From the NCBI GenBank assembly GCA_913009825.1, contig CAJVYQ010000022.1:3870-67869 (forward strand): a DNA stretch of 64,000 bases, given 5' to 3'. The stretch's first letter is position 1. Each line of letters begins with the position of its first letter. The stretch comes from an uncultured Deferribacteres bacterium. GTDB taxonomy: Bacteria > Zhuqueibacterota > JdFR-76 > DREG01. Below, piece after piece: positions 1,839 through 6,781 of the stretch. The notes under the pieces were generated by a model. It searched no databases. It was not told where the DNA came from and saw only the letters and a list, made by a program, of their open reading frames with translations. The position numbers were made by a program, and so were the translations under genes.

Positions 1839-1973
1839 AAAAAGAATTATGGCAGAACCTGTATGGGCACTTTCAGAACTACGGTTATTATCGATGAAGA
1901 AGGGAAGGTGAAGCATGTGTTCGAAAAAGTGAAAGCAGCAGGACATGCCGGGGAAGTTTTGTCCTGCTTATAG
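1839..1973 (+). pseudogene. C-terminal remnant of a peroxiredoxin (Bcp-like thiol peroxidase)
   Basis: Open frame without usable start translates to ...[40 protein letters not shown], matching the C-terminal ~40 aa of Bcp-type peroxiredoxins; the catalytic N-terminal part is absent. Confidence 0.5.
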
Positions 1974-2072
1974 TTGTGATTTCTGCAGATGAAGTGCAAA
2001 TTTTACTTGCTTTAAAAAGGGAATCCGTTTATATTTCAATAACATTTTAATGCCGGTTTTTTACAGGCAATT

Positions 2073-2146
2073 GGGCGATTGGCTCAGGTGGTTAGAGCGC
2101 TGCGCTCACATCGCAGAAGTCACTGGTTCGAGTCCAGTATCGCCCA
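2073..2146 (+). tRNA. tRNA-Val (anticodon CAC)
   Basis: Hand-folded cloverleaf: acceptor GGGCGAT/ATCGCCC, D-stem GCTC/GAGC, anticodon stem CTGCG/CGCAG with loop CTCACAT, T-arm ACTGG-TTCGAGT-CCAGT, discriminator A. CCA not encoded. Confidence 0.8.
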
Positions 2147-2556
2147 CAGAAGTCATCCCGGTTCTAATCGGCATGTCGCCCATAAGTTCAATTTTGGTAG
2201 AAAAAACAGAACAAGTCCGATTAAGTGTCGGGCTTTTTTGTTAGCGGATTTATTTTACGACTTGCAAAATTTACTTGAGCATGATGGCGCTTTTATCAGG
2301 AATTTGTAGTTGTTTGGCATGCCTCAGCCAATGACTTAAATTGTGGACTGATAAGGAAAAAGGCGTTAGCCATCATTACGAGGCAATGGCTGAAGGCGTT
2401 GAAGGGATTTTCAGATGAACCGTTATTGAAAGGAAAATGATCGGATTGAATTTGTTGAGACGTTTCTTTAGTTCAGATAAAGCGCTCCGACAAATCTGGG
2501 CGTTTCTCTTCGGAAAGGTTTAAGTTGGAGACAGGTAATTTCTGGTAGTGAAATTT

Positions 2557-2769
2557 TCATTTGTAGTAAATGGAAATAAACGATCCTTCGCTTGAAATGC
2601 TGCATTGGGAAATTTTTGCATCTTTCCGGTTGGAAATGCGCTTGCGAATCTGTTCTTTTAATTCATCACTCGATCTGAATTGTCCGATGAAAATTACATC
2701 TTCGTCATATTGGCTGTATGGCTGGTTGGATGCTGATTCCATATCTATTTTATCCTGATCCGGTTTCAA
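2557..2769 (-). CDS. Hypothetical small protein (70 aa)
   Basis: ORF with TTG start preceded by GAGGAG (RBS-like); no recognisable domain. May be spurious. Confidence 0.3.
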   Translation of the reverse strand: MKPDQDKIDMESASNQPYSQYDEDVIFIGQFRSSDELKEQIRKRISNRKDAKISQCSISSEGSFISIYYK

Positions 2770-3172
2770 TTTTTCTCCTCAAAATTAGAACGTCTATTTA
2801 TAGGACGCTTAATAAAACAAAATAGTTTACCGTTTTTTTCTTTTTGATAAAATTTGTTGTTGAATGTTAAACAATAAAAATCTTTTTATTCAGATAGATT
2901 TTTTTTGTAACATATTACTTCTTTTTGAAATGAAACGCCCAATTTTCATTCCCGCATGATTTAAGCGGCTGCCTGTTGCAGACAAACCAATAATTAGTGT
3001 TTGTCAAAGAACTAAAATGTAACATTTTTATATAAAATCTTACTAAATAGATAAAATTTTTCTTGACTTTGCATTTTTACATTGGTAAACTTAAGTCAGT
3101 ATTAATAATACCCTATTAAATAATTTTATTTAACGCAATCTAATTGCAAATCGTTTCCCAACCGGAGTATTT

Positions 3173-3538
3173 ATGAGCAGAGGAAAATTAAGATTTATTG
3201 AAGAAATGAGAGGTGACGTTACCGTTCTTCACCTGAACGGAAAATTAATCGGTGATGAGGAAACGAAAAAATTGAGTAACCGTATTAAAGAGTTAATTGC
3301 AACGGGAACAAAGCATTTTGTCATCAATTTGAGTCAGGTGAACTGGATCAACAGCAGCGGAATCGGCGCTTTAATTGCCTGCATGACCAGTGTGCGTAAC
3401 GGCGGCGGCGATTTGCGACTGGCAATTTTGACGAATGCGGCAAAAAAATATTTTAAAATCATGAATTTGGATACTGTCATCAAAATATATGATAACGCAA
3501 ACGATGCGGTTAAAAGTTTCACCGAAGAAAATAGGTAG
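3173..3538 (+). CDS. STAS-domain protein (anti-sigma factor antagonist, SpoIIAA-like)
   Basis: 121 aa; STAS pattern with the conserved phosphorylatable serine context (INLSQVNWINSSGIGALI) and C-terminal LDTVIKIY motif. Confidence 0.8.
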   Translation: MSRGKLRFIEEMRGDVTVLHLNGKLIGDEETKKLSNRIKELIATGTKHFVINLSQVNWINSSGIGALIACMTSVRNGGGDLRLAILTNAAKKYFKIMNLDTVIKIYDNANDAVKSFTEENR

Positions 3539-3853
3539 GCGAAAAGCCGGTAGAATAACACACCGCAACGGTCTGATTTTCCAACTAAACAATATGAATG
3601 AGCAAGAGAAAATGAAGGGGGAAATGCTCTATTCAGCTTACCTCATCACTGTTCTGTTTTTTCTCTTCCTCAGCAAAGGACATGCCTGTACAAATTTTTT
3701 AGTTTGGTGAATGCATATTATTTTTATTTTGTTCTGTGCAGGTAAAAAGTAATATATAAAAAAAATGCTAACCCGGCGCTCATCGTGTCAAGTTAAATCC
3801 GTGTCGTTGGGATTCTCTAAACAGGGATGAAATTCGACATTATTATCCAGTTG

Positions 3854-5017: not shown

Positions 5018-5019
5018 CT

Positions 5020-5649
5020 GGAAGCAGGTATGAAGTCAATACTATACTTGCAAAAGTACATACCTTCAGGCATCGGGTTTGTCTGAAAACAATCTACTCC
5101 TGCGGATTACGCCTGAATGAAGGCATTCATCTCCAGGTGTGTGACATCAACAGCGACCCCGAGCAGATGCTCGTCCATGTACGGTTTGCAAAAAGAGGAA
5201 TGCAGAGATTCGTGCCGTTGCCGAGTACCACCTTGAATATGCTCAGAGAACTATGGATGACTCACAAAAATCCTGTATGTTTCTTCCCGGCAACAGGCCG
5301 CGGTAGGGGTAAGACCAGTATGACTTCCGCAACTGAACCGGTCTCCAGAACCACCATACAAGATGCTTTCAGAGCAGCGCTCAAAGAAAGCGGTATCCGT
5401 AAAAGAGCTTCCGTGCATACATTACGTCATTCTTATGCCACTCATCTGTTGGAAAAAGGCGTTAACTTAAGGCTGATCCAGCAGTATCTGGGACATCGTT
5501 CGCCTCGTACCACCGCTATTTATACTCATTTGACCAAAACTGCTTTTGAAGCCGGATACCTGTCTGCTACAGGCAGGCAAGGCCATCGAAGAATTAATGA
5601 CCGATATTTAGCTACGACACAGACAACCTCCCGCGTTAAAAGAAACTAA
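5020..5649 (+). pseudogene. Tyrosine recombinase (phage integrase family), catalytic-domain fragment without N-terminal domain
   Basis: Open frame from 5005; ...CLKTIYSCGLRLNEGIHLQVCDIN...VHVRFAKRGMQRFVPL...HTLRHSYATHLLEKGVNLRLIQQYLGHRSPRTTAIYTHL carries the R..HxxR..Y catalytic signature. The only start is a GTG at 5137; no core-binding domain upstream. Confidence 0.7.
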
Positions 5650-5664
5650 AACATTGAGATTGCT

Positions 5665-6313
5665 ATGTTAGAAATGGCTGATATTTTCCGTCAGTACGGA
5701 CACCAATACATCGATCAATACGGTGAAAAAATGCTGCCGGGACACAAGCGAGTTATCCGTAATCTTCCGGGCCAAGTTCCGCGATGCTCTGAAACAAACC
5801 GACCTGTTTGATAAAGTGCCGCATGTGGTTTGGAAAAAAGATTGGGTGGTTCATGCCAAAGAGGCAGGAAACGGTGAAAACGTGCTCAAGTATTTCGCTC
5901 CTTATGTCTACCGGGTGGCTATCAGCAACAGAAATCTGGTTAAGCTGGAAAACGACCACGTTACCTTCCGGTTTAAGGACAGCAAGACAAAGCAGTGGAA
6001 GATGATGACGTTGCCTGTCTTTAAGTTTATGCATCGTTTCTTACAGCATGTACTGCCGAAAGGGTTCAAGAAAATACGATATTACGGATTCCTCAGTTCC
6101 AACAACAAACTCACGCTGAATCTGCTGAAATACCGACTGGGAACCCCTAAATCCAAAACCGATGAAGTCGGCGATGAACCGGAAAAAGACGGCAACGGGA
6201 TTCATCACACAACAAAAAAACACATCTGTCCCGTGTGTGGAAAACCGATGGTGTTGGTGGCTGTCATTTCCCGGTTCAGCAGAGACCCCCCCGTAAATCG
6301 GGCGGCGGCATAA
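5665..6313 (+). mobile_element. IS91-family transposase gene remnant (internal deletion/frameshift)
   Basis: N-terminal piece MLEMADIFRQYGHQYIDQYGEKMLPGHKRVIRNL (5665-5811) resembles IS91-family N-termini. A second frame (5723-6313) encodes the C-terminal region VLKYFAPYVYRVAISNRNL...VTFRFKD...MMTL...FLQHVLPKGFKKIRYYGFLS. The zinc-finger/HUH core between them is missing. Confidence 0.7.
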
Positions 6314-6630
6314 GTAGTAATAAAACAGACATATATGGCATCGATAGCTTGACTTTTTCAAAAAACGCGATCCGGGGGAACAGGATCCGTATGTCCTTAT
6401 CAGCCAAAATGAGGCGAAATGAACGTATGAAACGGAAATATGGATGTCAAAGAACAGGACAAAAACATGAGACTGAGCTTTTTGTCCGAATATTTGCTCA
6501 AATTGTCAACAATAGCCGGGCTCTGGTCAGAAACAGACCGGTTACGAAAACCTCAATACAGCAAACCAATGTTCCGGACTGAGTTATAAACCGGAAATCT
6601 GCTCTGTACAAGCGGCTTCGTCCAACCCAG

Positions 6631-6757
6631 GATTAGTGTGGTGGCTTCTTGCAATCCGGAACGTCTTCCTTATTTAAAACTTTTGTGATAGTTAAATTAA
6701 CCTCTGCTATTTTACCCGGCGCACCACACTAATCCCTTATTCGTTACTAATCCCTTA
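6631..6757. repeat. 14-bp inverted repeat (GGATTAGTGTGGTG / CACCACACTAATCC) followed by a tandem 18-bp direct repeat (ACTAATCCCTTATTCGTT x2)
   Basis: Read directly from sequence: arms at 6631-6644 and 6722-6735; the tandem repeat lies at about 6720-6757. Confidence 0.5.
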
Positions 6758-6781
6758 TTCGTTTATGTTGCTAATTTATAA

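Follow-up and report, generated by a model that had tools for sequence, protein, structure and literature searches.

A degenerate group II intron and the remnant of an IS91-family element lie end to end downstream of a STAS gene in an uncultured Deferribacteres bacterium

Group II introns with shifted splice sites are known in which the splice site is set by pairing between intron-binding site 1 (IBS1) and exon-binding site 1 (EBS1), is displaced from the terminal motif, and is accompanied by an extra structured segment at one end of the intron. Fungal rRNA IIB1 introns are spliced 1–33 nucleotides (nt) upstream of GUGYG and C.te.I1 8 nt upstream (PMC4424553), and B.c.I4 carries a 3′ extension of about 56 nt (PMC4424553, PMC4024640, PMC1865049). 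The shifts in the papers searched span only 1–33 nt, in introns that are non-mobile or encode a LAGLIDADG protein, and the literature searches returned no description of a 5′ extension as large as 71 nt. A different kind of mobile element, the IS91-family insertion sequence (IS) with an upstream tyrosine recombinase, is annotated on plasmids of Clostridium (as "site-specific integrase" plus "IS91 family transposase" in C. tagluense and C. estertheticum) and of Herpetosiphon. Here we describe a degenerate group II intron and the remnant of such an IS that abut one another in DNA of an uncultured Deferribacteres bacterium (GenBank assembly GCA_913009825.1, contig CAJVYQ010000022.1, positions 3,870 to 67,869). 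The whole 64,000-nt stretch is called the window, and coordinates refer to its plus strand unless stated. We consider it probable, if well short of certain, that these are two unrelated dead mobile elements lying end to end downstream of a STAS gene and joined by recombination between intron copies, and that the stump of a bcp gene nearby has a separate history.

The pieces were identified by open reading frame (ORF) listing, a tRNA scan, an Rfam scan, and Pfam and NCBIfam profile searches of the window. An initial annotation of the region had listed four fragments around a tRNA-Val gene: a peroxiredoxin tail, an intron-like RNA, a recombinase domain and a gutted transposase. It was right in substance about decayed mobile DNA and over-counted the elements. 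Nor had the fragments been mis-framed, for intact copies of the IS (contigs L061–L065) and of the intron (L073, L074, and L077) elsewhere show exactly what is lost.

On comparison with intact relatives, the recombinase and transposase fragments are assigned to a single two-gene IS91-family element that is pseudogenised and whose transposase is of the rolling-circle HUH/Y2 kind. A full-length protein of 294 residues (P0001) is 97% identical to the recombinase fragment. This protein and a second relative are encoded on eight independent short contigs (L061–L068), all with one layout, in which a recombinase with a SAM-like N-terminal domain and a catalytic domain is directly followed by an IS91 transposase of 373–380 residues with a zinc finger and a Y2 domain. 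Because the recombinase is the first gene of this conserved IS91-family unit, two of the four listed fragments count as one. The intact IS copies are about 2.6 kb long. The window aligns to positions 436–1152 of L061 at 93% DNA identity and to positions 1624–2566 at 88%, and no other part of L061 matches. The window copy is thus without the left 436 nt and without an internal segment of about 473 nt, a loss of about 909 nt in total.

The recombinase gene runs from codon 106 onward at 5023–5649 (plus strand), which is the part aligned to L061 436–1152, and lacks the SAM-like N-terminal domain together with the left end of the IS. The ORF at 5020–5649 matches XerA at positions 100–260 of 263 and PF00589 at positions 7–170 of 172 (E value of 1e-33), so that the catalytic domain, defined in tyrosine recombinases by R..H-x-x-R..Y, is present. 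The N-terminal domain PF13495, which is present in P0001, is absent from the window protein. The initial annotation had correctly described a catalytic domain without an N-terminal domain; its start lies at 5023 rather than 5020, and the fragment is not an independent gene, as it belongs to the IS. The missing N terminus is not found upstream of the intron either, where a weak likeness to it ("LLNRDEI") was considered and failed a tblastn check. Near the 3′ end of the gene, a 19-nt insertion at 5560–5578 puts the last 10 codons out of frame.

The transposase gene occupies 5665–6313 (plus strand), with the deletion of about 473 nt at 5756/5757. From 5723 to 6313 it matches the IS91 model at positions 178–355 of 356 and Y2_Tnp at positions 71–179 of 183. 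The deletion has a 2-nt overlap at its breakpoint; it takes out the zinc finger and the HUH motif (HLHAH) and shifts the frame, and the Y-x3-Y motif is kept. HLHAH is present in the intact 373-residue transposase of L061, and the earlier description of a transposase without its HUH core is borne out by this comparison. The non-coding right end of the IS follows at 6314–6748 (plus strand). It contains a 14-nt inverted repeat (6630–6643 and 6722–6735) and ends with ...CCCTTATTCGTTA at approximately position 6748, as defined by the flanks of the intact copies L063, L064, and L065, which diverge after CGTTA. The left end, GTTSAACTAAGCCGC..., is absent from the window copy, which is a non-functional remnant. 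A repeat search of the window places a perfect 18-nt tandem duplicate of the terminus at 6746–6763 (plus strand): between 6728 and 6763 the sequence ACTAATCCCTTATTCGTT occurs twice, as a perfect tandem duplication of the IS91-type right terminus. The duplicate may be an end left over from an earlier insertion at the same spot.

The gene order and orientation of this element are those of the annotated plasmid elements. Shared features are the PF13495 and PF00589 domains of the recombinase, the Zn_Tnp_IS91 and Y2_Tnp domains of the transposase, and a right end with a subterminal inverted repeat. The two differ in that protein identity to the plasmid elements is only about 40%, and in that the window copy is a remnant.

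Immediately upstream of the IS remnant lies a degenerate group II intron of the Rfam group-II-D1D4-6 type, at 3783–5022 (plus strand). Relatives of its reverse transcriptase (RT) fragment and a DNA pattern scan provided 22 loci with related introns, and the element boundary is common to L069, L071–L072, and L073–L090. The initial annotation had placed an intron-like RNA with a truncated RT at 3854–5017; the intron is real and its RT is truncated, and the limits are 3783 and 5022. The window copy scores below the Rfam cut-offs, with 38.9 bits against 49 for group-II-D1D4-6 (RF02005) and 31.1 bits against 40 for Intron_gpII, and intact relatives score 92–98 bits on RF02005. The low score is due to two changes in domain 1. 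A conserved segment of 46 nt is deleted near 4086–4090, and a GC-rich sequence of 20 nt is inserted at 4127–4146 (plus strand); in alignments with 4 to 12 relatives, the insertion was found in the window copy alone.

The intact copies encode an RT/maturase of 436–475 residues without an endonuclease domain. In the window, the corresponding gene is a stump at 4515–4850 (plus strand) in which some 108 codons of the N-terminal part run in frame into the final 3 codons. It matches the group II RT/maturase model only at positions 3–71 of 353 (E value of 4e-14). Comparison with the closest full-length copy, L077, which is 88–91% identical to the window intron, reveals a clean in-frame deletion of 975 nt at 4838|4839, equivalent to L077 positions 1090–2064. 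In addition, the start codon at 4515–4517 is mutated from ATG to ATA. Judged from these lesions, the window intron is non-autonomous, and it is probably catalytically impaired and probably unable to splice.

The boundaries of the intron were located from its many copies. In at least 12 copies whose flanks are unrelated, the common sequence begins about 71 nt before GUGCG (3854), and CUAAC-N-...UCA is common to 12 or more independent 5′ flanks. In the window, this 5′ exon target lies at 3768–3782 (plus strand) and is composed of CUAAC (3768–3772) and IBS1, GCGCUCA (3776–3782). Its partner EBS1 (UGAGCUG) lies in a hairpin loop of domain 1 at 4061–4067 (plus strand) and was recognized by covariation with the 5′ flank. 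Across the subfamilies, the 7 nt before UCGUGUC and the EBS1 loop change together, as CGGCUCA/UGAGCCG, CUGCUCA/UGAGCAG, CGCAUUA/UGAUGCG, and UGGCUCA/UGAGCCG. These are four compensatory sets of 7 bp; the window copy forms 5 bp. The covariation identifies EBS1 and IBS1 and thereby points to a 5′ splice site at 3782|3783, splicing itself being deduced from comparison. At the other end, all copies read ...CUUCUACCYGGA followed by A, after which the sequences diverge. The 3′ boundary at 5022 is supported by nine independent 3′ flanks and by a tandem junction in L085, where two copies are joined head to tail as ...CCCGGA|UCGUGUC. This junction, at about 5190–5310 of L085, joins the copies exactly, as ...CUUCUACCCGGA|UCGUGUCAAG..., and may reflect either a tandem insertion or an intron circle that was reverse-transcribed. 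Other limits were tried and rejected, namely a 5′ end at GUGCG (3854), a 3′ end at the end of the Rfam match (5017), and a CAGUUG/CAACUG pair as IBS1 and EBS1: this pairing does not covary, and the boundary shared by the copies is elsewhere.

The IS remnant starts at the base right after the intron 3′ splice site, in the middle of the recombinase gene (codon 106). On the other side, the 5′ junction of the intron looks native, because the flank CUAACCCGGCGCUCA fits the target of the family. The 3′ flank begins with A, the +1 base of every intron copy. In the intact recombinase gene, the 15 nt before the junction point, CUACCGGUGGUCUUA, match the window 5′ exon at 8 of 15 bases, including CUA.C and the terminal CU.A, and are followed by the required A at +1. 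This site, ...CUACCGGUGGUCUUA|AGCAG, falls between codons 105 and 106. From the identity, extent, defects, and boundaries observed for each element, we infer the order of events and a recombination step as follows. An intron would have inserted downstream of the STAS gene at a genuine family target, with the 5′ exon ...CUAAC...GCUCA and a 3′ exon starting with A, and a second copy would have retrotransposed into the recombinase gene of the IS at ...CUACCGGUGGUCUUA|AGCAG. Homologous recombination between both copies, with loss of the intervening DNA, would then have left a single intron, preceded by the 5′ exon from one site and followed by the 3′ exon from the other.

Several observations weigh against this order of events. 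A contig in which the intron interrupts an otherwise intact recombinase gene was not found. The intron–recombinase junction is crossed by no public contig and is seen in this assembly only, and within the window each element occurs just once. Pairing of EBS1 with the proposed ectopic IBS1 is weak, at 4 contiguous pairs of which one is a wobble. Moreover, AA is shared at the junction, and as far as the sequence goes, a deletion mediated by microhomology explains it no less well. In such a simple deletion, an intron near a complete IS would have lost its 3′ exon, together with the left end of the IS and 105 recombinase codons, by illegitimate recombination at AA. The two bases (5022–5023) can be assigned either to the intron and the first exon base or to positions 436–437 of the recombinase sequence, the same IS has suffered another deletion (about 473 nt, with its own 2-nt overlap), and the lack of a second intron copy in the window speaks for this scheme. 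However, the intron measures 1.2 kb, and a random breakpoint would have to strike no more than 1 nt from its 3′ splice site; the 3′ flank that was kept also begins with the family-wide +1 A. We regard a simple deletion as unlikely and prefer inter-intron recombination as the most economical explanation.

The junction could also have been made by the assembler, if there were two identical introns, one downstream of STAS and the other interrupting a recombinase gene that is otherwise complete at its 5′ end, and the 5′ flank of one had been joined to the 3′ flank of the other. In that case the apparent loss of the N-terminal domain would be artefactual, and the intron would sit in phase 0 within the recombinase gene. 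An independent contig from a marine metagenome (L060) breaks inside the intron, as would happen if that community contained the intron in more than one copy, and mixed joins do exist in public contigs: L073 has a 110-nt 5′ flank identical to that of L080 and L087 and a different 3′ flank, which reflects either inter-intron recombination or chimeric metagenome assembly through the intron. The junction, again, is covered by no independent contig. Yet a repeat of 1.2 kb usually ends a short-read contig instead of being bridged by the assembler, the window gives no sign of a collapsed repeat, and the IS has other defects that do not depend on the assembly, which makes a mistaken join a still slighter prospect. 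The initial annotation had suggested instead repeated insertion and deletion at a hotspot beside tRNA-Val, which would make the region a decayed island with the recombinase fragment as its integrase. Mobile-element remnants do lie within 5 kb of the tRNA gene, and the flanks of an esterase block downstream vary between strains. Other findings speak against this. No att-like repeat of the tRNA-Val 3′ end was found within 6 kb (1800–8400 searched). The recombinase shares 93% identity with the leading gene of a compact unit of IS91 type that recurs in many contexts unrelated to one another, and the genes in the interval from tRNA to intron appear native. The intron, 1.6 kb away from the tRNA gene, occupies a sequence that fits the target it recognizes by base pairing (CUAAC...GCUCA|A), so its position is specified by EBS/IBS pairing. 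There is no evidence in these results that ties the remnants to tRNA-Val, the hotspot claim is not supported, and we hold a tRNA-linked island to be very improbable.

Between IBS1 and the canonical GUGCG (3854–3858), the intron carries a structured 5′ leader of 71 nt at 3783–3853 (plus strand), which is conserved in all copies. A hairpin in the leader (3809–3822) shows compensatory changes across eight subfamilies. Domain 1 normally starts with GUGCG, then a small hairpin and CAAGU. The 5′-terminal GUGYG is not at the proposed splice site: GUGCG lies at 3854, and the first bases of the intron would be UCGUGUC. In this family, 71 nt thus seem to have been inserted between IBS1 and GUGCG. Other identities for the leader were considered. 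It has no Rfam match at E values up to 10, as a known self-cleaving ribozyme or another Rfam family would; it is too short for an attC site; and there is no second domain 5/6, as a twintron would require.

Domains 5 and 6 were located at 4951–5022 (plus strand) by an Rfam Intron_gpII match, folding, and alignment. Domain 6 has a bulged branch-point A at 5016, 7 nt before the 3′ end at 5022. Domain 5 forms the hairpin with its bulge and matches Intron_gpII, at 31.1 bits in the window copy, below the cut-off of 40, and at 43.5 bits in the intact relatives. Domain 5 (4951–4983 in the window, and in L071–L074, L077, and L088) reads GAACCG...CGGAUC in every family member, so that the catalytic triad position is occupied by AAC with an A.A pair, where AGC with a G.U pair is usual. 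Despite the AAC triad, the family displays signs of recent mobility, in the form of many near-identical copies in unrelated flanks. The combination of a 71-nt structured leader and an AAC triad is unusual. A tentative interpretation is that this is a mobile, RT-encoding lineage in which 71 nt separate the 5′ splice site from the GUGCG downstream of it, the lariat includes a "domain 0" leader, and domain 5 works with AAC and an A.A pair; at present we think this possible rather than likely.

The resemblance to the shifted-splice-site introns (fungal rRNA IIB1 introns, C.te.I1, and B.c.I4) lies in a splice site apparently set by IBS1–EBS1 pairing away from the terminal motif, and in an extra structured segment at one intron end. 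In contrast to them, the window family appears to be displaced by as much as 71 nt, its extra segment is conserved as well as structured, and it encodes a full RT, appears actively mobile, and retains the branch site. The family also resembles the endonuclease-less mobile bacterial group II introns and their ORF-less derivatives, for example those of Thermosynechococcus (PMC2882425). Shared features are domains 1–6, GUGCG with its small hairpin, EBS1 in a loop of domain 1, a bulged A in domain 6, an RT/maturase in domain 4, and many copies in unrelated flanks; the window copy, which derives from such introns by deletion, would depend on a protein provided in trans. Unlike these introns, the window copy has a damaged domain 1, and the family has its boundary 71 nt upstream of GUGCG and the AAC/A.A arrangement in domain 5.

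Upstream of the two elements, the tail of a Bcp/PrxQ peroxiredoxin gene is located at 1839–1973 (plus strand). It comprises the C-terminal 44 codons and a stop, and the N-terminal 108 or so codons are gone. Compared with the thioredoxin-dependent Bcp/PrxQ peroxiredoxins, the 44-residue tail aligns to the C terminus of the family: the match to the thiol peroxidase model NF006960 (E value of 1.2e-6) is confined to positions 109–151 of 156, in agreement with the earlier call of a Bcp tail without an N terminus. An in-frame TGA at 1836–1838 closes the frame, and the stop codon of lpdA is at 1813–1815. The tail is a pseudogene stump from which the catalytic N-terminal two thirds are absent. The missing part was sought upstream of the pyruvate dehydrogenase (PDH) operon on L060, where there are just 219 non-coding nt, and this location was rejected. 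Since the stump is on the other side of the tRNA gene, against the end of the GC-richer PDH operon, it is best treated as a separate event or rearrangement, unconnected to the intron and the IS.

The PDH E1–E2–E3 operon (window 1–1815; L060 220–5683) has a GC content of 50–56%, against a window mean of about 43%, and the GC content falls sharply from 56% to 43% at the lpdA stop codon. In a search against 185,579 species genomes, the best LpdA matches were 60–65% identical (Ignavibacteriota and Terriglobia), with Terriglobia (65%) ranking ahead of Ignavibacteria (60–63%). By its LpdA, the window falls in or near Ignavibacteriota. In the closest genomes of this collection, nothing of the gene order downstream of LpdA is conserved beyond the PDH genes. 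Horizontal transfer may have brought in the operon, perhaps truncating bcp in the process. Exact-protein look-ups found no match on record for LpdA, the recombinase ORF, or the RT stump, and a repeat search found no other copy of any fragment within the window, neither the intron nor the IS being duplicated.

The tRNA scan confirmed the tRNA-Val gene (anticodon CAC) at 2073–2147 (plus strand), and a terminator-like hairpin is situated 3′ of it at 2213–2235. Next comes an ORF of 70 codons on the minus strand (2557–2769), called as a gene on L060 and divergent from the STAS gene. It is a near-orphan with just three weak relatives among 1.8 billion representative proteins, and it was not recognizable as a mobile-element remnant. 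The STAS-domain anti-sigma-factor antagonist gene at 3173–3538 (plus strand) is intact, as first annotated, with matches to PF01740 (E value of 1.7e-14) and TIGR00377 (E value of 1.7e-16). L060 equals window 1–3902 at 99.95% identity and stops 120 nt into the intron; it has the same order of Bcp stump, tRNA, and STAS gene, and its STAS protein is identical to that of the window. Both the 70-codon ORF and the STAS gene look native.

Downstream of the IS remnant, the esterase block (6753–7648) is bounded by 18-nt inverted repeats (6763–6780 and 7628–7645). The block is 99.7% identical in four contigs from sister samples (L091–L094), in which both flanks are different, and from this we conclude that the neighbourhood is rearrangement-prone. 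On one side in these contigs, the block abuts a different, IS91-like-looking end at the same position, ...CACAATCTAACCTTATTCGTT. Altogether, the block resembles a small mobile cassette without a transposase. Just past it, genes for tRNA-Glu(UUC) and tRNA-His(GUG) lie on the minus strand at 8060–8255, and the variable segment is thus flanked by tRNA genes on both sides. The insertions of 19–20 nt that interrupt domain 1 of the intron (4127–4146) and the recombinase tail (5560–5578) are GC-rich and palindromic. A similar motif (CTGCCCGNCCNCAGGCGGG) occurs at 63804–63822 and in the tail of L091, and these palindromes may be a tiny dispersed repeat.

Annotation of the region should list a single pseudogenised element of IS91 type, a single degenerate group II intron, and a bcp pseudogene in place of four independent fragments, and a tRNA-linked island should not be inferred from it. 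The exact abutment of the IS and the intron is a small example of how repeated introns can either rearrange a chromosome or lead an assembler astray. For a genome, such a patch is ordinary, and the point for specialists is the atypical intron lineage. If the leader is indeed part of the intron, the choice of splice site by IBS1–EBS1 pairing would be uncoupled from GUGYG over a long distance in a mobile intron, which would bear on the positioning of the 5′ splice site in the active sites of group II introns and the spliceosome.

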